Below, piece by piece: positions 1,837 to 13,159 of a DNA stretch of 24,851 nt. Source of the stretch: a virus. Lineage: Duplodnaviria > Heunggongvirae > Uroviricota > Caudoviricetes. Location: IMG/VR virus record IMGVR_UViG_2565956714_000001, positions 1-24,851 of that record, one strand, 5' to 3'. Below the pieces are notes generated by a model that had not been told where the DNA came from, searched no databases, and saw nothing but the letters and a program-made list of their open reading frames with translations. Made by a program: the position numbers and the translations under genes. Within the stretch, counting starts at the first letter, position 1. Each line of letters begins with the position of its first letter.

Positions 1837-2535
1837 ATGAAAAATATCCTACTGGCATCATTGTTAGTGGCATCGCCGGGTGCATTTGCAGCCAGCTTTG
1901 ACTGCCAAAAGGCTTCGACAGCAATCGAACATAAAATCTGCGATAACGAACGTCTGTCAAAATTAGACGAACAGCTTAGCTCTGCCTATTCTAGTGCCCT
2001 CAAAGAAAACCCAGAGAACGCAGACACCATAAAAATGGTTCAACGTCAGTGGGTAAATATGCGTGGAAAACTCACTGATAATAAGGCTCTGGAGCTGGCT
2101 TATCTTATCCAAATTAATGGCCTCAAAGGTTTGGGGAGTTCAGTCAGCGTAACAGCGGCCAATGAGATACCCACGTCGACGCAGAAACATTCTGAAGAGC
2201 AGGAAGAAACAAGTAAGGCAGAAGTTAAGTCGGTCAAGAACGGCAATAAGCTAACCTTAGAGTCATTCCGAGCTAAATATGTAGAAGTAGATGGTGAGTA
2301 TTACAGCACGACATCCATTCCTAGAGGCAGTTCGTTCTTGTTCACTTGCGCCAGTCGTATTGCTGATGACCAAGTGAATGTTTGGAAGAAACATGCAGCC
2401 AAAGAGGGCAAAATCGACCTATTCTTTGAGGTTGAGAATCACTTACACACTGCTATGTTGAACGCCAATTTCCAGAAGTTGAATTCAGACCCTGCCAAAA
2501 GAGGTATTTGTAATCTGATTAACGCAGTGCCGTAA
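1837..2535 (+). CDS. secreted/periplasmic DUF1311-like (lysozyme-inhibitor LprI-like N-terminal domain) protein; phage moron
   Basis: N-terminal signal peptide MKNILLASLLVASPGAFA, then FDCQKASTAIEHKICDNERLSKLDEQLSSAYSSAL, which matches the C..A...E..IC....L..LD..L...Y pattern of DUF1311 as I recall it. GGAG RBS before the ATG at 1837; own terminator downstream. Confidence 0.7.
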   Translation: MKNILLASLLVASPGAFAASFDCQKASTAIEHKICDNERLSKLDEQLSSAYSSALKENPENADTIKMVQRQWVNMRGKLTDNKALELAYLIQINGLKGLGSSVSVTAANEIPTSTQKHSEEQEETSKAEVKSVKNGNKLTLESFRAKYVEVDGEYYSTTSIPRGSSFLFTCASRIADDQVNVWKKHAAKEGKIDLFFEVENHLHTAMLNANFQKLNSDPAKRGICNLINAVP

Positions 2536-2543
2536 GTAAATTT

Positions 2544-2575
2544 AGGGCCACAGTTGTGGCCTTAAATATTTTTTC
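2544..2575 (+). terminator. rho-independent terminator after the DUF1311 gene
   Basis: GGCCAC-agtt-GTGGCC hairpin (2546-2561) followed by a T-rich run (ttaaatattttttc). Confidence 0.6.
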
Positions 2576-2741
2576 AGCCTTTTCTTATTTGTAATAAGCA
2601 GTACTTAGTAGTGCTTATAAAACAGAATAAAAAACATATGACTTTGGCGATTACCCAGTAAAGATATTCGAAATAAATGTAAATATCGGCAATGAATAAC
2701 AATCCTCGCACTCGCGGGGATTTCTTTTATATGGGGATAAT

Positions 2742-3542
2742 ATGACCATCCACTTTCACGGCAGCCCAATATGGGGGGATGAGCATGCCCCTACAGATAT
2801 GCTGATTAAAGCCCTTTACCGTGATGGTGGGGCTTTTGTTTCATTTGCCAGACCAGAGCAGATGAAAAAGATTGCCATGTTCCCTTGTGATATACGCCTT
2901 GATAACGGTGCTTTTAGCGACTGGATGAAAGCATTAAAGAAAGGCACTCCGGTAGACTGGAGTAAGAGACGAGCAAAATTCTACGACTTTGTTGGGAAGT
3001 GGTTCAGCAGAATTGAATGGTTTCTTATACCTGACGTTATCGAAGGGACAGAGGCAGAAAACGACGAGCAGATTGAGTTGGTTCCTGATTGGCTAAAATC
3101 AAAAGCGGTTCCGGTCTGGCATACCGACGAATCAATTGAACGTCTTTTACGCCTTTCTAGCAAATTTGAATGGGTGGCGATTGGATACTGCGGACCACAC
3201 AGGCACATACGCTCTAAATGGTGGGAACAGAGAATGGATGAAGTTTTCACTGAGCTTTATATCAATCGTAATTTGAAAGTGAAAATTCATGGTCTTCGAA
3301 TGCTCGACGTGAGAGTTCTTGGTATGTATCCGTTCGCCAGTGCGGATTCTACTAATGTTGCTGTTAACGTACCGAAGACAGAGAAGCGATTTCCTGAGAT
3401 TACCGACAAACTGGCACGCACAGCTGTACTTCGCGCTGCTATTGAAAAGGTGCACCCGCCATCGATATCAGCATGGGTAGACAGAAAGATGAGAGAGCCG
3501 GCGCAAGCCGGTTTTTTATTTGAATTCACCGACGCCGCTTAA
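2742..3542 (+). CDS. hypothetical 266-aa protein; possible TGT-fold (tRNA-guanine transglycosylase / DpdA-like) enzyme
   Basis: Clean ORF bounded by terminators on both sides. Motifs RLDNGAFS, LIPDVIEG, AIGYCGP and FASADSTNV occur in the order and approximate spacing of TGT-family motifs LTDSGGYQ, AFDEC, LMGVGKP and DMFDCV (from memory). No Cys/His zinc site is present. The functional assignment is speculative; the CDS itself is well supported. Confidence 0.6.
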   Translation: MTIHFHGSPIWGDEHAPTDMLIKALYRDGGAFVSFARPEQMKKIAMFPCDIRLDNGAFSDWMKALKKGTPVDWSKRRAKFYDFVGKWFSRIEWFLIPDVIEGTEAENDEQIELVPDWLKSKAVPVWHTDESIERLLRLSSKFEWVAIGYCGPHRHIRSKWWEQRMDEVFTELYINRNLKVKIHGLRMLDVRVLGMYPFASADSTNVAVNVPKTEKRFPEITDKLARTAVLRAAIEKVHPPSISAWVDRKMREPAQAGFLFEFTDAA

Positions 3543-3561
3543 TGCGGATTTCTTTTATCTG

Positions 3562-3588
3562 AACTCGCTACGGCGAGTTTTGTTTTAT
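3562..3588 (+). terminator. rho-independent terminator after the 266-aa gene
   Basis: AACTCGC-tacg-GCGAGTT hairpin followed by TTTGTTTTAT. Confidence 0.6.
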
Positions 3589-3599
3589 GGAGATGATAA

Positions 3600-3767
3600 A
3601 TGCACTTCCGAGTAACAGGTGAATGGAATGGAGAACCATTCAACAGAGTTATCGAAGCAGAGAACATCAACGACTGCTATGACCACTGGATGCTGTGGGC
3701 GCAGATGGCACATGCAGACGTAACCAATATTCGAATTGAAGAACTGAAAGAACACCAAGCCGCCTGA
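3600..3767 (+). CDS. hypothetical small protein (55 aa)
   Basis: ATG at 3600 preceded by GGAG (3590-3593). The stop codon lies within a GC hairpin followed by a T6 run. Translation MHFRVTGEWNGEPFNRVIEAENINDCYDHWMLWAQMAHADVTNIRIEELKEHQAA. Compact, with its own RBS and terminator. Confidence 0.6.
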   Translation: MHFRVTGEWNGEPFNRVIEAENINDCYDHWMLWAQMAHADVTNIRIEELKEHQAA

Positions 3768-3781
3768 TGGCGGTTTTTTAT
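3758..3781 (+). terminator. rho-independent terminator
   Basis: AGCCGCC-tgat-GGCGGT stem followed by TTTTTTA. Confidence 0.6.
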
Positions 3782-3824
3782 TGCCTGATTTGCAGGTTCG
3801 ATTCCCTATTCGGAGATAGCACTC

Positions 3825-4025
3825 ATGCAACACGAACTACAACCTGATTCACTGGTTGATTTGAAATTCATCATGGCTGATACTGGCTTCGGTAAAACCT
3901 TCATCTACGACCGGATTAAGTCCGGCGACCTGCCAAAAGCCAAAGTTATCCACGGGCGAGCAAGATGGTTATATCGTGACCATTGTGAATTCAAAAATAA
4001 GCTCTTAAGCCGCGCCAATGGGTAA
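3825..4025 (+). CDS. torI: TorI-like excisionase / recombination directionality factor (AlpA/Xis-family winged helix)
   Basis: The 66-aa translation MQHELQPDSLVDLKFIMADTGFGKTFIYDRIKSGDLPKAKVIHGRARWLYRDHCEFKNKLLSRANG matches my recollection of E. coli KplE1 TorI. GGAG RBS 9 nt upstream. Confidence 0.85.
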   Translation: MQHELQPDSLVDLKFIMADTGFGKTFIYDRIKSGDLPKAKVIHGRARWLYRDHCEFKNKLLSRANG

Positions 4026-4086
4026 AATAGCGGGTAAAATATTTCTTACATCTAAAAAACATCATTCCAATCAATCCCCTGCCGAT

Positions 4087-4131
4087 GGTGAGGCTTTATA
4101 GAAAAATACCTCACCATTATTTTGTAATTTT
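4087..4131 (+). terminator. possible terminator downstream of torI
   Basis: GGTGAGG ... CCTCACC stem with a large 15-nt AT loop, followed by attattttgtaatttt. Confidence 0.35.
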
Positions 4132-4140
4132 CGCATAGAT

Positions 4141-4179
4141 AAAAGAAAATAAATCACGAATTGTTTAAATTTGTGATTT
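4141..4179 (-). terminator. probable rho-independent terminator of the tailspike gene
   Basis: On the minus strand: AAATCACAAATT-taaac-AATTCGTGATTT (one mismatch) followed by ATTTTCTTTT. Confidence 0.45.
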
Positions 4180-4226
4180 ATTACACGCAATAATTATCAT
4201 GCTTTATTAAACCCTCCAGCTAATCC

Positions 4227-6293
4227 TTATATACTCCTTGAAATTTCAAACCAAATACCACTCAGTCTTTTTAGTGTTATAATTGTGTTGCCTGATATTG
4301 ACGCTATATCTTTTTCTCCTCTTAACCTTATAAGCTTGTTATTATGAATTAACTTTGATCCTATAGACATTCTTACTTGTATTATTTGCCCATCAATTCC
4401 ATTAGAAAAGTAACTTACAACTTTATTGTCAAGGTATATGCTTGGCCCGACAAATGCACTAGATGTGCCTCCCGGAGCAAAATATTCAATAGATGGGTCC
4501 TCAAGAGCGGTAACGTTATCTATTTTATAGAAAGGAGTCCTTCCCCTAATGCTATAGTACTGTGAGTAATTAGCATTTTTTGCTGAAATATCTATGGCAG
4601 AAATTCCTGTCATTAAACTATCATCTTCAACTAAGTATAATATGTGTCTGAAATTACCAGCCTGATGGATTGTTTCTCCATATATATTTATATTACCAAG
4701 AACAACACCATTTAGCTGGCAAAGATAAATAGCACATGCTGAATCACCGTTAGGTGTATATACGTTTCCAGATATGGAATACTCAGTCGTGCTTCCATTA
4801 ATCATCTTGGTAACACTCCTTCTGGAACTGTATATTGCATTATCAGGTAATTTAAGCGTCTGTGATGATTCTATTCCTATACAAGCTACAGATGCTGTTA
4901 TTGTATTATTTTTTAATGAAACATATCGCGAGTTAAAGCAATGTACTCCGTATCTCCAGTCACCTAGTATCATGTTGCCTATTATGTCTATACTGTATGC
5001 ACCTTGTGCAAACTGGATAGCTGCATCATCAGATATGTAACTAGAAGTAGAGGCTGACTGTATATAGTTGTTTGATATCTGTATATATCTAGATTCTCCA
5101 AAAATAATTGCTGATGATTCTGCATTGATTAGCCTATTTCCCTCTATTTTTACACGCTCGCAACCAGTTCCAAGATTTATATTACGATGCGAACCTCCAA
5201 TTAGTATATTCCCTGTAAATTCAGCATTAAATAACCCGAAAGCTTGCACGTTGTGAGTTCCGTTGATAACGGTGTTGTTTGACACAGTTATGTACTGAAT
5301 GGTTTTGTGTTGCGAATTCCATTTTACACTTCCAGTTTCAGTGTCTATGTTGTTTTGTGCTACTAAATATATACCAGCAATACCAACTGTTCCTGCACCA
5401 CTATCAGGATCTATGGGCATCTCAATTGTATTTCCTTCTATGGTATCGTATAAGTTTAGTGATGTGATATCTGTTGTTCCAATACGTATACCATATCGTT
5501 CAGTTCCATCAACACCGAAACCATATACTCTGTTTCTTAGTATTTTGCACCTAGTTGTTGCGCTAAGAAGAATTCCTCCTCTGGCAACACCATTTGCATT
5601 AATGGAACAATCACTAATTTCAAGGTCTGTGTGACCGGAAGTACCTTGCGAAAACAAGCAGACACCACCCTGTGCTGTGACAATCAGGCTAAGATCACTT
5701 ATTTTTTTTATGCCAACAGGTATTTCTACCTGAGAAACGAGATATGTGCTTCCTTTTTTACCTCTTACCCAACGAATTTTCCCAGAAGAACAGTATTTCA
5801 TAGCAGACACTATAGATTCTGTATCATCATTAACCCCATCACCAACAGCGCCGAATTGTTCCGGTGTAACATACAATGATTGATCATACAAAGTTCCAAT
5901 TGGCTGGACGCCAACCATCCCAGAACCAAGTGAAGATGAAAGCTCATACTTAAATTGGTCTGGGTCGTACTTCAACACATTTGGGAAATAAAATTGCTGT
6001 GCACCATACGCATCATAAACAGCCATAGAATGGCCTTGCACTGTAACGAACTTGGCGATCTGTCCGTTATACACAGGATAACCGGCAGAGTTAATAACAA
6101 TTGGTTGTTCTACCTGAACATGTTTACCATCTTCTCGTTCCAGATATACCGGAATCTGGTTTTCAGGATTTACCGGGTCCGTGTCAATTTTACCGATATA
6201 AATTTTTCCATTGGCTACGGCTTTAAAAGAACGCGCCATAGTGAAGAGTTGCGAAGGCATGCTCACTACAACATTGGCTGTAATGTCTGTCAT
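4227..6293 (-). CDS. tailspike protein: P22 gp9-type N-terminal head-binding domain fused to a divergent right-handed beta-helix receptor-binding domain
   Basis: The N-terminus [50 protein letters not shown]...[14 protein letters not shown] matches the P22 gp9 head-binding domain from memory. The remaining ~570 aa are beta-helix-like (NNT/GN/IxG coil repeats) with no P22 similarity, and the DNA there is visibly AT-rich. GGAG RBS upstream on the minus strand. Confidence 0.9.
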
Positions 6294-6425
6294 TTAATTT
6301 GCTCCAGATACAAGGAATCACCGCAGCGTGGCTACGGTTGGTGTTTGTTGCATACCGAAATGGTACGATTGTTGATTTGTACAGTAGGTTTTACGATGCC
6401 ATTCCACCCATTTGGTGAGGCATTG

Positions 6426-6683
6426 ATGATGTACAGCAAATACGATGAGGCGCAGTTCCACTTGAGGCTTACGCACGAGTTGCACGCTAAGATTAAGCAA
6501 CGTGCAAAAATGAATAACAGGTCTATCAATTCCGAAATTGTGGCTACGATGGAAGAATCACTCTCCAAACCATCACCTGTAAGCGGGTATCGTGATGAAG
6601 AAGAGAGGCTGGCCTCATTAATCTCGGAACGAGTAAAAGAAGTTGTGGCTGATATCCTTAGAAAAGAAAAAACCCGCAATTAA
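6426..6683 (+). CDS. mnt: Mnt-like ribbon-helix-helix repressor
   Basis: MMYSKYDEAQFHLRLTHELHAKIKQRAKMNNRSINSEIVATMEESLSKPSPVSGYRDEEERLA parallels P22 Mnt as recalled (RHH N-terminus and SKPSPVTGYRNDAERLA C-terminal region). GGTGAGG RBS precedes the ATG. The ORF-track frame from 5955 upstream is antisense to the tailspike and is not counted. Confidence 0.85.
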   Translation: MMYSKYDEAQFHLRLTHELHAKIKQRAKMNNRSINSEIVATMEESLSKPSPVSGYRDEEERLASLISERVKEVVADILRKEKTRN

Positions 6684-6697
6684 GCGGGTTTAGTTGG
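6669..6697. terminator. bidirectional terminator shared by convergent mnt and the arc-ant operon
   Basis: AAACCCGC-aattaa-GCGGGTTT hairpin. The minus-strand reading is followed by TTTTTTC (strong); the plus-strand reading by a weaker TTTAGTTGGTT. Confidence 0.65.
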
Positions 6698-6919
6698 TTA
6701 GTTATCAAAAAGTCCGTACGTTTCTTCTTCTTCAGGTGTAAGGGGAAGAATCTCTACTCTATCTATAGATACCTTTTCAATGTACCCATGAGGTCTACTT
6801 AAAATTAAAGCTCTCTCATGCCACAGAACTCCAAGAATGTGATACCTTCCAGCATCTCCTTTTACCCTGGCTCTTCCTTTGATTCTTGGCGGCATAATGC
6901 CATATCTTTTCTTTGCCAT
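6698..6919 (-). CDS. hypothetical 73-aa protein, last gene of the arc-ant operon
   Basis: Start overlaps the upstream stop by 1 nt (translational coupling). Translation MAKKRYGIMPPRIKGRARVKGDAGRYHILGVLWHERALILSRPHGYIEKVSIDRVEILPLTPEEEETYGLFDN. No family recognised. Confidence 0.55.
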   Translation of the reverse strand: MAKKRYGIMPPRIKGRARVKGDAGRYHILGVLWHERALILSRPHGYIEKVSIDRVEILPLTPEEEETYGLFDN

Positions 6920-7644
6920 TATGCAACATTGCTCCCATGAATCAGGTGTTGTAGTGCTTTAACACCCTCCGCATTGTAGCGGAATGCTTCCACCTGTTTG
7001 CTTGAATGCGCAGATTTATCCAAGAAGAACTTCCCGTACTGCTCAGTTTTGAGGTTGTTTGCGTTAGCAATGCGACCAATCTTGTTTGCCGTTACTCCAA
7101 GCTGCTCTGCAACCTCCCCTGCTGAGTAGTAATGCTCTTCTATTGCTGGAAGAGGTATTGCATTAAAACCAACTATCGGGTTGATTATGCTTGCTGCCGC
7201 AGTCTGCTTTGCTTCCGGCGCAAGATTTGGCATCAAATCTAACAGATTGGTAACAGCTTCAACCGTCATTTTCAATGTTCGTGCCTGGCGATACTCAACA
7301 AGTCCACTCGACGATTTACCGCTTTTAATGTGCGCTTCTTGCATACTTTCAAGTTTGTCTACAAGTGTTCGGCGAACTGCTTTAGATTCGCGAGCAGCAA
7401 CACGAAGCGCCTGCTTGATAGTCATGGAGATAACATCAATGTCAGCCCCGTTTTTCCGACCTACACTTTTTGTGTAGGTCTCGCCCTCCAATTCATCCTC
7501 AATTTTCTCGATGAATTTGTTGTTACGTACTGATGGCTCTCCACATAACTTGCGAGCTTCATTAACCATCATCAGAAGACTTTGGCTGTCAATGGTTTTA
7601 TCCGTGACAACGGATCCGATGTTTGCTACATTCTTCAAAGTCAT
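6919..7644 (-). CDS. antirepressor-like protein (Rha/KilA-C/ANT-type C-terminal region)
   Basis: Start at MTLKNVANIG with an AAGGAA RBS. The C-terminal HYYSAGEVAEQLGVTANKIGRIANANNLK resembles the DNA-binding segment of ANT/KilA-C antirepressor domains. Co-oriented with the Bro-N gene upstream. Confidence 0.6.
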   Translation of the reverse strand: MTLKNVANIGSVVTDKTIDSQSLLMMVNEARKLCGEPSVRNNKFIEKIEDELEGETYTKSVGRKNGADIDVISMTIKQALRVAARESKAVRRTLVDKLESMQEAHIKSGKSSSGLVEYRQARTLKMTVEAVTNLLDLMPNLAPEAKQTAAASIINPIVGFNAIPLPAIEEHYYSAGEVAEQLGVTANKIGRIANANNLKTEQYGKFFLDKSAHSSKQVEAFRYNAEGVKALQHLIHGSNVA

Positions 7645-7732
7645 TAGGCATTCCTTATGTGGTAGTAAGGGTGTGACATAGGCCGCCAGCAGCACACTGG
7701 CGGTTTTCTTTTTGCGCCGTCCGGCGCACCAA

Positions 7733-8359
7733 TCAATGAATCCATTCCTCGCCGCGCAGTTTTGTCAGCATTGGCTGAGCGTTCTTTACGACAAAATTGT
7801 TGGTATCAAGATTCTTCATTTCACGAAGAAGTGATTTCTTGGTTTCTTCTGACATATAGCGAGTCTCATATGCAATATCGTAAATTCTTCCTGAAAGCTC
7901 AGAACCAATTTGCTTCATTCCTGGGTAGATGTGTTTGCACATTTGTTGACTCTTCTCCATCCACAATTGTAAGTAGCAGAGATTAACCAGTTCTTCGTCA
8001 GTAAACTGTTTTGCAATCGGTGAGCATTCTGCCTGCCGATCCAAAATATCCAGCACCCAGCGGCGGAACTCTTTGGCTACCGGAGTGCGAGCAAACATCG
8101 CGATTAGGTGGGCACCGCGTAGTGAGAAAACTCGCACTTTTTTGCGATAATTTCCTGAGGTACTCACTTCGAGTACCTGAGTCATTCCGGCGCTAAACTC
8201 ATCGCTATACTTGTTATAAATCATTGTTACTGCACGGCTATTTGCATATTTAAGTGCAGATGCAATATTAGATGATGTAAACCAAACACCATGCATATCA
8301 CGGGTGGGCACCAACTCAACTCCGTGGAAGTTGTAATCTGATTTTGCTACAATATTCAT
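7733..8359 (-). CDS. ant: antirepressor, Bro-N domain protein
   Basis: Start at MNIVAKSDY (AAGGAAAC RBS); the ORF-track start at 8464 has no RBS. FHGVELVPTRDMHGVWFTSSNIASALKYANSRAV is Bro-N-like. It lies downstream of the arc-like gene as in P22 immI. Confidence 0.75.
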   Translation of the reverse strand: MNIVAKSDYNFHGVELVPTRDMHGVWFTSSNIASALKYANSRAVTMIYNKYSDEFSAGMTQVLEVSTSGNYRKKVRVFSLRGAHLIAMFARTPVAKEFRRWVLDILDRQAECSPIAKQFTDEELVNLCYLQLWMEKSQQMCKHIYPGMKQIGSELSGRIYDIAYETRYMSEETKKSLLREMKNLDTNNFVVKNAQPMLTKLRGEEWIH

Positions 8360-8437
8360 GTTAGTTTCCTTGCATACGGTTACTGACATAGAGGCCCGGT
8401 TTGTGTTCGCGCACTGCCGGGCTTCACTATTTTTATT
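8360..8437 (+). ncRNA. candidate sar-like antisense RNA covering the ant RBS
   Basis: On the plus strand, an extended -10 element TGcTACAAT (8345-8353) sits just inside the ant 5' end. A directional hairpin GCCCGG...CCGGGC (8394-8422) followed by TTCACTATTTTTATT lies in the arc-ant spacer. Positional analogy to P22 sar. Confidence 0.3.
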
Positions 8438-8606
8438 GGATGACAACATCGCCCTTTGCCTCAAGTTTCATCAATAACTCCATTCGATAAGCTATCTCTG
8501 CCTGAATTGACCTATGGCATCTTTTTGCTGATTCGCGGATATGTGAATCAACCTTTTCTGTAAAACGAACCTGACGCGGCTTGATGGAAGATATCTTTTC
8601 AGTCAT
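8433..8606 (-). CDS. arc: Arc-like ribbon-helix-helix repressor (57 aa)
   Basis: Not in the ORF track (under 60 aa). Translated by hand: MTEKISSIKPRQVRFTEKVDSHIRESAKRCHRSIQAEIAYRMELLMKLEAKGDVVIQ. GGAG RBS 7 nt upstream. It is the first gene of the antirepressor operon, as in P22. Confidence 0.7.
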   Translation of the reverse strand: MTEKISSIKPRQVRFTEKVDSHIRESAKRCHRSIQAEIAYRMELLMKLEAKGDVVIQ

Positions 8607-8655
8607 TATGCACTCCTGTTTTTGAAAAACTCATAATCTCACTTTTTGTAGTTTG

Positions 8656-8684
8656 ATTATTCACTCACACTCAGTATGAGTCAA
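8656..8684 (-). promoter_or_regulatory. Pant-like sigma70 promoter with an embedded palindrome (candidate Arc operator)
   Basis: Minus strand reads TTGACT-17 nt-AATAAT upstream of arc. The inverted repeat ACTCA-gta-TGAGT (8669-8681) overlaps the -35 and spacer. Confidence 0.4.
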
Positions 8685-8705
8685 TGAATTTTTTATGGTG
8701 AACTA

Positions 8706-9347
8706 ATGAATTTTGACGATCAATTCCCATCAAGAGTATCTCTGGCAAGACAGTCCAGGGGTATGACGCAGGCGCAGTTGTCAAAATTAGCTGGTGTTGT
8801 TCAACGTCAAATAGCTGCATACGAGGGTGGTGAGGCTAAACCACGGCTTCGTGTATTGCAGGCATTAGCCAACGCATTAGGCACTACGGCTGAGTGGTTA
8901 GCTCTGGGTGAAGGTCAGGGGCCTGGAACAAAAAACGTCATGCCTGACGTTCTGGTAAAGCAAATACCAATCCTCAAACTAGATGAAGTTATGCATTACC
9001 TAAACACAGGTGAACATTCATCGTCTAGATTTCATCCGGCAATATACAATGTTGGTGACTCTGCATTTGCATTGACTATTGAAGGTGAAGCTATGACTAC
9101 AAGTTCAGGTATTAGCTTTCCCAGAGGATCAGTTGTCACGTTCAGCCCTCTAGTAAAAGCTAAAAGCAAAGATTATGTAATAGCATCATTGGATAAAGAG
9201 CAAATATTGAGCTTCAAGCAGGTTTACATTGGTGAAATAGAGACAAACTTAGTATCCCTAAACCCAATGTATCCTAATATTCTTGTTAGAAATGAAGATG
9301 TTAGTATTTTGGCAACCGCAGTTTACCTTGAAATCCCGTTGCTTTGA
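8706..9347 (+). CDS. lambda-CI-like regulator: XRE-type HTH plus S24 (LexA-like) C-terminal domain with catalytic Ser replaced by Ala
   Basis: N-terminal HTH MTQAQLSKLAGVVQRQIAAYEGGEAKPRLRVLQALANALGTTAEWLALGE. The C-terminal VGDSAFALTIEGEAMTTSSGISFPRGSVVTF aligns to lambda CI [33 protein letters not shown], with GCT (Ala, 9090-9092) where CI has the nucleophile Ser. The Lys of the dyad is retained (LSFKQVY vs FTFKKLI). No Ala-Gly cleavage motif is seen in the linker. Confidence 0.8.
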   Translation: MNFDDQFPSRVSLARQSRGMTQAQLSKLAGVVQRQIAAYEGGEAKPRLRVLQALANALGTTAEWLALGEGQGPGTKNVMPDVLVKQIPILKLDEVMHYLNTGEHSSSRFHPAIYNVGDSAFALTIEGEAMTTSSGISFPRGSVVTFSPLVKAKSKDYVIASLDKEQILSFKQVYIGEIETNLVSLNPMYPNILVRNEDVSILATAVYLEIPLL

Positions 9348-9411
9348 TATCCTTTAGGAAGCGACACATTATCATCCGGTGTTCTGCTCAAAACTAAGGA
9401 GTGGCTACTCA

Positions 9412-10050
9412 ATGAAAAAAATAGATATATATAGCGATACATCAGCCTATGTCATAGGCTCATTGGGTTTTTTAATTTTTTTTGTTTGGCAGTACCAGTC
9501 ACTATCTCCAGGATGGAGATTTTTGGGGATGTCTTTGATATCACTTGGTGCAGGAATAGCAACGCAGGTGTTGATGTATCTCTTTAATGGATGGATCTCA
9601 AAAAGAGTTGAGAAAAAAAGAGCTACTTCAATATGTAGAAGCCTAGCTATTCCAGAAGACTCTACAGATCAGGATGATATTGCAAAATGTTGGCGGTATA
9701 TGATTGCAAGATACTCAAATGAGTTACTGGCAAACAGACTGTCCGACTTAATCGGGATCGTAGTTACCTCTGTTGGAACAATCATCAGTATAGGGATATC
9801 AATTTGGTATGTCGGGATGATTGTCTATTTTGTTTGGAATAGAGACTTCAATGAACCTTCCCTTCTTTTTATACCTTTATTTTTCAGGGTATTAGCATTC
9901 ATATGTGAGTTATTGCTCTCTTTTTTCTGCAATGTTTTGTTCAACAGATACCCAGGTGAAGCAAGAAAGTTTAATAAAAACTATGATGAGTTAAGGAGAA
10001 CAGATCCTTTTCTATCAAGCAAAGAGTTCCGCGATTCCATTCGCAATTAA
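9412..10050 (+). CDS. inner-membrane protein with four predicted TM helices; possible SieA-like superinfection exclusion protein
   Basis: AGGAG RBS before the ATG at 9412. Four hydrophobic segments are visible in the translation. The DNA is AT-rich. It occupies the slot where P22 has sieA; the function is positional inference only. Confidence 0.55.
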   Translation: MKKIDIYSDTSAYVIGSLGFLIFFVWQYQSLSPGWRFLGMSLISLGAGIATQVLMYLFNGWISKRVEKKRATSICRSLAIPEDSTDQDDIAKCWRYMIARYSNELLANRLSDLIGIVVTSVGTIISIGISIWYVGMIVYFVWNRDFNEPSLLFIPLFFRVLAFICELLLSFFCNVLFNRYPGEARKFNKNYDELRRTDPFLSSKEFRDSIRN

Positions 10051-10097
10051 CAACATCCATGACATCAACCCTTAGCGATCAGTTGCATCATTGGCAA

Positions 10098-10100
10098 GTA
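10098..10100. repeat. IS3 target-site duplication, left copy (GTA)
   Basis: GTA immediately outside the IS3 left inverted repeat; the same trinucleotide is at 11359-11361. Confidence 0.7.
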
Positions 10101-10165
10101 TGATCTTACCCAGCAATAGTGGACACGCGGCTAAGTGAGTAAACTCTCAGTCAGAGGTGACTCAC

Positions 10166-10465
10166 ATGACAAAAACAGTATCAACCAGTAAAAAACCCCG
10201 TAAACAGCATTCGCCTGAATTTCGCAGTGAAGCCCTGAAGCTTGCTGAACGCATCGGTGTTACTGCCGCAGCCCGTGAACTCAGCCTGTATGAATCACAG
10301 CTCTACAACTGGCGCAGTAAACAGCAAAATCAGCAGACGTCTTCTGAACGTGAACTGGAGATGTCTACCGAGATTGCACGTCTCAAACGCCAGCTGGCAG
10401 AACGGGATGAAGAGCTGGCTATCCTCCAAAAGGCCGCGACATACTTCGCGAAGCGCCTGAAATGA
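10166..10465 (+). CDS. insE: IS3 transposase OrfA (InsE, HTH)
   Basis: [54 protein letters not shown]... matches the recalled IS3 InsE. Confidence 0.92.
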
Positions 10466-11328
10466 AGTATGTCTTTATTGAAAAACATCAGGCTGAGTTC
10501 AGCATCAAAGCAATGTGCCGCGTGCTCCGGGTGGCCCGCAGCGGCTGGTATACGTGGTGTCAGCGGCGGACAAGGATAAGCACGCGTCAGCAGTTCCGCC
10601 AACACTGCGACAGCGTTGTCCTCGCGGCTTTTACCCGGTCAAAACAGCGTTACGGTGCCCCACGCCTGACGGATGAACTGCGTGCTCAGGGTTACCCCTT
10701 TAACGTAAAAACCGTGGCGGCAAGCCTGCGCCGTCAGGGACTGAGGGCAAAGGCCTCCCGGAAGTTCAGCCCGGTCAGCTACCGCGCACACGGCCTGCCT
10801 GTGTCAGAAAATCTGTTGGAGCAGGATTTTTACGCCAGTGGCCCGAACCAGAAGTGGGCAGGAGACATCACGTACTTACGTACAGATGAAGGCTGGCTGT
10901 ATCTGGCAGTGGTCATTGACCTGTGGTCACGTGCCGTTATTGGCTGGTCAATGTCGCCACGCATGACGGCGCAACTGGCCTGCGATGCCCTGCAGATGGC
11001 GCTGTGGCGGCGTAAGAGGCCCCGGAACGTTATCGTTCACACGGACCGTGGAGGCCAGTACTGTTCAGCAGATTATCAGGCGCAACTGAAGCGGCATAAT
11101 CTGCGTGGAAGTATGAGCGCAAAAGGTTGCTGCTACGATAATGCCTGCGTGGAAAGCTTCTTTCATTCGCTGAAAGTGGAATGTATCCATGGAGAACACT
11201 TTATCAGCCGGGAAATAATGCGGGCAACGGTGTTTAATTATATCGAATGTGATTACAATCGGTGGCGGCGGCACAGTTGGTGTGGCGGCCTCAGTCCGGA
11301 ACAATTTGAAAACAAGAACCTCGCTTAG
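10462..11328 (+). CDS. insF: IS3 transposase OrfB (InsF, DDE catalytic domain); expressed as an OrfAB fusion by -1 frameshift
   Basis: [36 protein letters not shown]... with DDE-type motifs ([17 protein letters not shown]). It overlaps insE in the -1 frame. Confidence 0.92.
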
Positions 11329-11341
11329 GCCTGTGTCCATA

Positions 11342-13159
11342 TTACGTGGGTAGGATCAGTATTGGTCTGATGGCATTTGCGGCGTTATTCAGCGCTCTTT
11401 CATAGGCTGGCGTTCCAGCTTTAGTGTTTGCCAGACGTAAGAGCGCATTCCTTGCTGCTTTGGACTCATACAAGCGCATCATTGCACCGAAACCAGCCTC
11501 AAGCCCCATTGATACGCCAAGAGTCGCAGTTGCGCCAATCGTCCTTATCCTGTTGGCTTGCGATTGCCCCGTCTGAGTTACTACATTTGCGGTGTCTGAC
11601 CTTGCTGTTTGCTGTAGAACTTCATTAAGAGCATCAAGTTCTTTCATGTGCTTTCCAGAAAAAATAGTGTTGTAAATTTCACCTCCTGACTGAGATTTCA
11701 GCTTATTAACTTCAGTGATGAACTTGGCTGGAGAGTCACCGGCCTTTTCCGCTATTTTGCTGACGTAAGCTGCACGCATAGCATCTTTCCCTTTATCATC
11801 CAGTGCGCTCCAGATTCGTTTCACGTCAGATGGTTTTCTGCTTAATACAACGGTATTTATAAGTTCAGGACTGGCTTCACTGCTTGCCTTGTTGAGCTTG
11901 TTGGCAATGTTTTTATTAAGCACCTTATTATAAACGTTTGCATAATCGGAATTTGCTTTAAGGTATTTTGCTGCGTCTGATGCACCGAGGTTTTTAGCAA
12001 CTGCGTTACGAAGGTCTTTTGACATTGCATTCTCTACCATATTGGTAGCTGCTTTTGCCTGGTTGGGGAAGACCATAGCATCTCCCTGAACATTAGATCT
12101 AAATGCTGTTCTGTGCTGACGCAAGAGATCAAACGTAACATCCAAATCAGTTGCAGGGTTTGCTAATTCTTCACGTAGGTTACGCAAGGATGTAAGCAGG
12201 CTTTGATTGGCTGAAGTCCCAAGCCGTTCCTGTCTTGCGATCGCTGTATTCAGAGCATTCATGGTATTTGTGGTATCAACTGCGGCATTACCCATTTTAT
12301 TGGTGACGTCATTGATAACAGCGCCAGCAGCATCCTTCCGCCCCCTTAACGTGGTGGTCAGAGATTTCACCACATCATCAGGGTTGTACTCACCAAAACG
12401 GTCAAAATAATTGCTTACCAGCTTACTACGCGTTGCATATTGCTCCGCTCGCTTTGAGCCTGTCCCGAGCAAAGCCCCCTCGGCATCCTGAGTAAGGCCG
12501 CGAGTGAAAGCATTTTTCGGCGGGATAACATCAGATGTCATTGGTGTCACGCCCATCGATTCTGATGTGGCAATTTTCTTCGCCACTTCTGGCGCAATAT
12601 CACCTTTTATAGCCGTTATTCCACGCCCTATTCCCTTTGCTGCTGCGGAAAGAACACCCTGAGCGGCAAGGTTAACTCCGGCATTTTTAGCTGCATTTTG
12701 TGCGAAATCGCCTTTCTGATTTGCGGCCTCTGCCAGTGATCCAATAGCCATGCTTCCTGCCGTTCCAACTCCTGGAACTAAATACCCGCCAATTGTTTCT
12801 CCAGCTTGCGCATAAGGGTCTGTTGGTCGATCTACTGGACGATAGACATCGTCCAAAACCTTGGGGCCACCAAGCCCCTGGCTGATTGCATTAATCAGAC
12901 TTGCGCCACCCTGCAATACGTCAAATGGTATATTTACCAGACCACGACCAGCCTGCTCTGCAATTTGCCCTGCACTTTGACCACCAGTGAGCAAGTCAGT
13001 AGCTTTTTCTACCAGAGATTGTTCTTCTGGCTGCGATTGGTTTTGAGTGGATTGATCACCAGAAGACAGCATCTGAGCAATGCGACGTGCTCCCTCAGTA
13101 TCACCAGCAGCATCAGCATTCCTTAACGCCGTCATCAATTGTTCACGACTATAGGCCAT
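11342..13159 (-). CDS. ejection (pilot/internal) protein, P22 gp16-like; C-terminus altered by the IS3 insertion
   Basis: 605-aa ORF at the gene 16 position, co-oriented and coupled to the gp20-like gene. Its last codons and stop (11342-11358) lie inside the IS3 right end. Confidence 0.8.
11359..11361. repeat. IS3 target-site duplication, right copy (GTA)
   Basis: GTA immediately after the IS3 right end, identical to 10098-10100. Confidence 0.7.

Follow-up and report, generated by a model that had tools for sequence, protein, structure and literature searches.

How did the ejection-protein gene of a P22-like phage come to take its last codons from a transposable element, and does the exchange matter? 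The question is raised by positions 10,098 to 13,159 of a 24,851-nucleotide stretch of phage DNA (IMG/VR virus record IMGVR_UViG_2565956714_000001, positions 1 to 24,851), which we call the window and in which a copy of the insertion sequence (IS) IS3 interrupts gene 16. A preliminary description, made from the letters alone, had proposed a recent 1258-bp IS3 insertion carrying insE and insF, flanked by a 3-bp GTA duplication and acquired in an Escherichia-type host. We conclude that this is very probably a canonical IS3 insertion into gene 16 of a P22-like phage of Escherichia coli HVH 91, most likely of small consequence. Element and mechanism are already known; it is a textbook IS3 insertion of which only the particular site is new, and it is found in one strain.

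A complete IS3 copy and its empty site

The element and its borders comprise the following features.

10098..10100, no strand: left copy of the target-site duplication, GTA (from the sequence; a single GTA stands at the E. coli HS empty site)
10101..11358, plus strand: IS3, a complete 1258-bp copy (from identity to E. coli IS3 copies)
10101..10139, no strand: left terminal inverted repeat (IRL; repeat search, 39 nucleotides, 72% complementary)
10166..10465, plus strand: orfA (insE), 99 residues, with an HTH_Tnp_1 domain (Pfam PF01527; same size as K-12 insE1; existing gene call)
10428..10432, plus strand: A-AAA-G motif within the overlap of orfA and orfB, where the -1 frameshift to OrfAB is expected (from the sequence)
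10462..11328, plus strand: orfB (insF), 288 residues, with the DDE/rve catalytic domain (Pfam rve, 5e-28; NCBIfam transpos_IS3)
11320..11358, no strand: right terminal inverted repeat (IRR), whose minus strand gives the gene 16 codons I-L-P-T-stop
11359..11361, no strand: right copy of the target-site duplication, GTA (from the sequence and the empty-site comparison)

Exactly 1258 bp lie between the two GTA trinucleotides, starting TGATCTTACC and finishing GGTAGGATCA. The inverted repeats are imperfect, and the termini (TGATC.../...GATCA) have the 5'-TG...CA-3' form expected of the element. Alignment with reference copies, which the preliminary description had called for, gave 99.92% identity over 1255 nucleotides to IS3A of K-12 MG1655 (insE1/insF1), and many complete E. 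coli genomes contain full-length copies, annotated as "IS3-like element IS3 family transposase", that are 100% identical to the window copy. The IS3 copies of K-12 (IS3A-E, insE/insF; IS3 family, IS3 group) share with the window copy the 1258-bp length, the termini, the orfA/orfB layout, and the 3-bp duplication, and differ in location only, apart from K-12 IS3A, which deviates in its first 3 nucleotides where the window copy has the full TGATC end.

Both open reading frames (ORFs) are intact, with orfB in the -1 frame relative to orfA and the AAAAG motif at 10428-10432, which we take, as is established for IS3, to be the site of the OrfAB frameshift. Pfam domains HTH_21 and rve/rve_2 are found in orfB, which scores 339 bits on the NCBIfam model transpos_IS3 (NF033516; cut-off 160). 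Positions 1-87 of that model are matched by orfA and positions 90-369 by orfB, the pattern expected of a frameshift-fused OrfAB. The element carries every sequence-level mark of IS3 membership, and its intact reading frames and ends suggest that it can transpose, presumably with OrfAB made by frameshifting. Target duplications of IS3 elements are 3-5 bp long (PMC10379815).

By itself, a 3-bp match between flanks has a 1/64 chance of arising at random. What makes the case for insertion decisive is that the reconstructed empty site occurs in nature. An 800-nucleotide query, made of the two flanks joined with one GTA, is matched over its full length at 99.9%, with a single GTA, by the chromosome of E. 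coli HS (the P22-like prophage HS1), and at 97.6-99.5% by nine further complete genomes. The HS site reads CATTGGCAA-GTA-TTGGTCTGATGG; as far as the GTA the left junction of the window agrees with it, and from the GTA onward the right junction does. In this empty state only 21 bp separate the stop codons of gene 16 and the convergent gene sieA. Away from the junctions, the left flank of the window differs from IS-free HS1 by 1 mismatch in 3047 nucleotides, and the right flank is 98.9% identical to it over 2608 nucleotides. HS1 gene 16 is likewise 98.9% identical and its sieA is identical; the prophage differs in having no IS at the gene 16 site and in its tailspike and other modules, which are mosaic.

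The same comparison bears on an assembly artefact, in which unrelated contigs flanking IS3 copies were misjoined through the repeat. Such an error is conceivable in that the source is a draft short-read assembly and IS3 is multicopy in E. coli (it was found in 4686 of 5426 complete genomes, at a median of 3 places per genome). A misjoin would not, however, rebuild a natural empty site to the base with a 3-bp duplication, and Logan contigs built from reads carry the junction between gene 16 and the IRR: the contig from SRR785531, which recurs in four samples, includes this junction and stops 27 nucleotides into the IS. Contigs usually break at repeats. On the exact empty-site reconstruction and these junction contigs we reject the artefact, to which we assign a negligible probability.

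The insertion is a recent one, confined to E. coli HVH 91. The exact 605-residue gp16 that it creates is EQQ12408.1 of this strain, and the contig encoding it (KE705262.1 of GCA_000457305.1) includes the window; otherwise this protein occurs only in Logan contigs whose sequence breaks off within the IS right end. When a 240-nucleotide probe for the left junction was run against the 5,426 complete E. coli genomes, none covered even 80% of it, and none of 50,697 phage records has this IS at the gene 16 site. One record, phi467, was examined as a possible sharer of the junction and dismissed; it ends in 247 nucleotides of IS3, but beside unrelated genes. The insertion is judged recent because the IS is 100% identical to E. 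coli copies, the duplication is perfect, the junction is absent elsewhere, and the left flank has diverged so little from that of HS1. Both the recency and the Escherichia-type host that had been surmised are borne out, the latter by the source strain and by the prevalence of IS3 in the species.

We picture the event as follows. A temperate P22-like phage (Lederbergvirus) that resided in HVH 91 received an intact IS3 from the E. coli genome, presumably by the copy-out-paste-in mode of the IS3 family with OrfAB as the DDE transposase, and the target trinucleotide GTA, in gene 16 codons 600/601, was duplicated on insertion. Translation of gene 16 now reads 14 nucleotides of the right inverted repeat and stops, and the native last codons are stranded beside sieA. 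The effect is most likely small: a hydrophilic, fast-evolving tail beyond the conserved core of gp16 is replaced, and the antisense IS in the late transcript is probably read through.

The rewritten end of gp16

Gene 16 now lies in two parts, on either side of the element.

11342..13159, minus strand: gene 16 as now read, encoding a 605-residue ejection protein gp16, with residues 1-601 native and residues 602-605 (ILPT) and the stop from the IS right end (75% identity to P22 gp16; phrog_770; PF26808)
10072..10097, minus strand: orphaned native 3' end of gene 16, comprising the last two bases of codon L601, the ANDATDR codons, and the stop (in-silico excision; identical in HS1)

The preliminary description had read the gene 16 ORF as running 14 nucleotides into the IS, so that its product ends ...RPILILPT, and had deduced a native ending ...RPILANDATDR. 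The first point holds in the sequence, where the final 14 coding nucleotides and a TAA stop lie inside the IS right end. The second agrees with nature: with the IS and one GTA taken out in silico, the ORF is 608 residues long and has the deduced ending (NAIRPILANDATDR), and the HS gene 16 product ends LANDATDR*. The GTA target spans codons 600/601 on the opposite strand; Leu601 is kept, its codon changing from CTT to CTG, and the seven residues ANDATDR give way to the four residues ILPT, which shortens the protein from 608 to 605 residues. The stranded 3' end, 26 nucleotides long, remains on the sieA side of the IS. As signs that would tell against an insertion, the preliminary description had named the same C-terminus in IS-free relatives or the lack of GTA from an empty site; neither was seen. 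Of the 120 best gp16 homologues, 16 have ANDATDR at the end and not one has ILPT.

The "gp16-like" label can be made more precise. The protein is 75% identical to P22 gp16 over 554 residues, with P22 L602 aligned to L601 of the window, and it matches phrog_770 (4e-261) and, in precomputed annotation, PF26808 (Phage_P22_gp16); our own profile searches of gp16 against Pfam and NCBIfam gave no match. Its gene is the last of the three E-protein genes (7, 20, 16) and is followed by sieA/immI and the tailspike gene, as in P22. To judge from sequence and synteny, it is a true orthologue of P22 gp16, here as a mutant allele of a family member that lacks the native C-terminus.

Whether the new tail is harmful was judged from the variability of the old one. 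An alignment of 61 gp16 representatives, whose identity to the native protein is 24-80%, shows the conserved part ending around ...RNALLRL..P.GS..F..A, close to residue 590; the tail beyond the L601 column is 4-25 residues long (median 9), unconserved, and mostly polar. An AlphaFold2 model of gp16 (mean predicted local distance difference test, pLDDT, 75.6) places the last helix at residues 584-607, with pLDDT of 84 over residues 591-600 and 62 over residues 601-608. Because the replaced tail is variable in sequence and length and modelled with reduced confidence, its replacement is probably, though well short of certainly, tolerated; that it is disabling seems unlikely, yet not to be dismissed. 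No PDB relative of gp16 was found by sequence, and no literature was found on the last residues of P22 gp16, published mutants included. The C-terminal requirement of T7 gp16 was discarded as a guide, that protein being non-homologous.

Several observations weigh against a harmless change. The tail pattern RP[IL][LF]-x-x-[EDQ]-x-T-x-x is kept in all 120 close homologues and in P22 gp16 (RPLLANEATRQ), which hints at some constraint within the P22-type C-terminal subfamily. The ILPT tail stands at the family minimum of four residues, is more hydrophobic than the native one, and puts a proline within the predicted last helix. The C-terminal region is also sensitive in P22, where the changes G532W and P546S in gp16 confer escape from SieA (PMC10883804). 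These points favour a more damaging outcome of the same insertion, in which the essential gp16 fails in virion assembly or in the DNA conduit of the inner membrane, or the IS has a polar effect on expression of ant and the tailspike gene, leaving a defective prophage that still supplies SieA. We regard this outcome as unlikely: against it stand the lack of conservation of the tail in sequence and length across the wider gp16 family and the intact ORFs of all the remaining late genes in the window.

At the escape positions themselves, Gly531 of the window protein aligns with P22 G532 and is invariant in the 61 representatives, and residue 545, aligned with P22 P546, is Ala.

Late transcription and the sieA side

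The window covers the late region of a P22-like phage (Lederbergvirus), with HF4s, Sf6, and HK620 as the best phage matches. Its minus strand carries terminase, portal, scaffold, coat, gp4, gp10, gp26, gp14, gp7, gp20, and gp16 genes; an immI-like region and then the tailspike gene (4227-6293) come next. By domains, the order is P22_gp7, Inj_translocase (gp20), gp16, SIEA, Bro-N/P22_AR_C, Arc, and Head_binding tailspike. The tailspike gene of P22-like phages lies downstream of gene 16 within the late transcript, and 1.26 kb of untranslated antisense IS3 now stands between gene 16 and the ant/tailspike genes.

This is where polarity, the second route to a disabled phage, would act. A scan of both strands found no terminator-like motif inside the IS. 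A strong terminator-like site lies at 6691-6670 on the minus strand, just ahead of the tailspike gene, so that the late transcripts need antitermination in any case; in HK620, terminators are annotated between gene 16 and gene 9. Late transcription in P22-type phages is antiterminated, in P22 by gp23. Accordingly, any polarity of the IS on the downstream tailspike gene is probably masked by antitermination of the late operon. A caution on this point is that the gene 23 region is outside the window, and that antitermination across the IS is something we infer.

On the other side of the element lies a gene that the preliminary description had recognized only as a convergent membrane-protein gene separated from gene 16 by the IS.

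9412..10050, plus strand: type B sieA (superinfection exclusion), convergent with gene 16 (212/212 residues identical to HS1 SieA; PF26849; phrog_7745)

The separation is real, and the gene is type B sieA. Its product carries the type B motif FxRYPxEAxxFNK, as defined in PMC10883804, in the form FNRYPGEARKFNK. In experiments the HS1 type B SieA excluded P22-like phages, acting at the step of DNA injection, and SieA-escape mutations map to gp20 as well as gp16 (PMC10883804). In the window the sieA coding sequence is untouched, and its 3' flank now enters the left end of IS3, with which it is co-oriented through insE/insF; sieA transcripts of the prophage may now run into these genes.

This arrangement invites an adaptive interpretation, in which the insertion changed the exclusion interaction between gp16 and SieA, altered 3' processing of the sieA mRNA, or coupled read-through from sieA to expression of the IS3 transposase. 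SieA does act on gp16 and gp20, the escape changes do lie in the C-terminal region of gp16, the IS stands precisely between sieA and gene 16, its insE/insF running in the direction of sieA, and a promoter-like hybrid (TTGGCA-18-AATAGT) spans the left junction. The known escape sites, however, are 55-70 residues upstream of the altered tail, the insertion is present in one strain only with no sign of spread or recurrence, and promoter-like sites overall are no more frequent than chance (9 found by the scan versus 11.7 expected). We hold adaptation to be very improbable. The predicted RNA fold at the sieA-IS junction is no better than that of shuffled sequences (z = -0.26), and an Rfam search of positions 8500-12000 gave no match.

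The hybrid promoter-like site, at 10091-10120 on the plus strand, consists of TTGGCA in the phage flank, 18 nucleotides, and AATAGT within the IRL, and points into insE.

Compared with P22, the region has the same order of gene 20, gene 16, convergent sieA, immI (ant, arc), and tailspike, and the native gp16 tail RPILANDATDR corresponds to the RPLLANEATRQ of P22. P22 has type A SieA and mnt and is without an IS, whereas the window has type B SieA and, adjoining sieA where P22 has mnt, a 213-residue repressor-like gene (8706-9347, plus strand) with an HTH (helix-turn-helix) domain and Peptidase_S24 (LexA/CI-type). The immI-like region further contains a 57-residue ParD/Arc-like ORF (8433-8606, minus strand) and two anti-repressor-type genes (Bro-N/P22_AR_C at 7733-8464 and phrog_1726 at 6919-7695, both minus strand). 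The same arrangement of repressor-like, ParD/Arc-like, and anti-repressor genes is found in HS1.

State of the phage and significance

Other features of the window and its relatives concern the condition of the phage as a whole. HS1 has another IS3-family element about 3 kb away, in an anti-repressor-like gene (NC_009800.1 locus, 2144-3291 and 3355-3945) that is intact in the window (6919-7695), and in E. coli A23 an IS1 abuts a related tailspike gene (locus coordinates 6169-6866). In these prophages the stretch from gene 16 to the tailspike gene is thus a place where independent IS hits cluster. Two stand-alone 39.9-kb records belonging to complete E. coli assemblies, NZ_CP146561.1 and NZ_CP146567.1, match the sieA/gene 16 region at 99.4%, which suggests P22-like genomes assembled as separate replicons, either episomal or induced phage.

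Within the window, a torI/xis-like gene (3825-4025, plus strand) is fused at 4083-4085 to the 3' flank of the tailspike gene (context 3825-4226). Relatives have an attP core, an integrase gene, and an O-antigen-modification gene between these ends, all of which are missing at the joint. To the left of the joint the window agrees with Sf6, HF4s, and E. coli prophages as far as CAATCAATCCCCTGC, after which these go on into the att core; to the right it agrees, from GGTGAGGCTTTATAG onward, with E. coli A23, in which that sequence comes after an EpsG-family gene, intS, and argW. No colinearity across the joint was found in complete E. coli genomes or phage records. It looks like an int/attP deletion in a circularly permuted, possibly non-integrated phage genome, and it is relevant to the question of whether the element has remained a normal temperate phage. 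Separately, a 266-residue ORF at the end of the early-left operon (2742-3542, plus strand) has a match to phrog_887 ("queuine tRNA-ribosyltransferase") that is confined to the first ~317 of the 509 positions in the profile; it is possibly a truncated or distinct moron gene.

The missing int gene and attP core, together with the IS damage in relatives (the HS1 anti-repressor gene and the A23 tailspike), make decay plausible and so lend some weight to a disabled phage. A bolder interpretation would take the rewritten gp16 tail and the int/attP-core loss together as marks of a P22-like element heading to domestication or to a non-integrating lifestyle, in which the host keeps SieA while the changed gp16 C-terminus affects infectivity or sensitivity to SieA. 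We think this quite improbable; if it were true, the very last residues of gp16 would have a part in conduit function or in SieA targeting.

On the interpretation that we prefer, a canonical IS3 insertion of small consequence, importance beyond annotation is small. EQQ12408.1 (605 residues) is a chimera, a gp16 to which the end of an IS contributes the four final residues, and should not be read as a natural gp16 variant. The locus is a clean, fully resolved case of an IS moving into a phage resident in its host, and its empty site is known. Besides, it provides a gp16 C-terminal allele made in nature, which lets the dispensability of the last residues be asked and is relevant to work on the P22 ejection conduit and on SieA exclusion.

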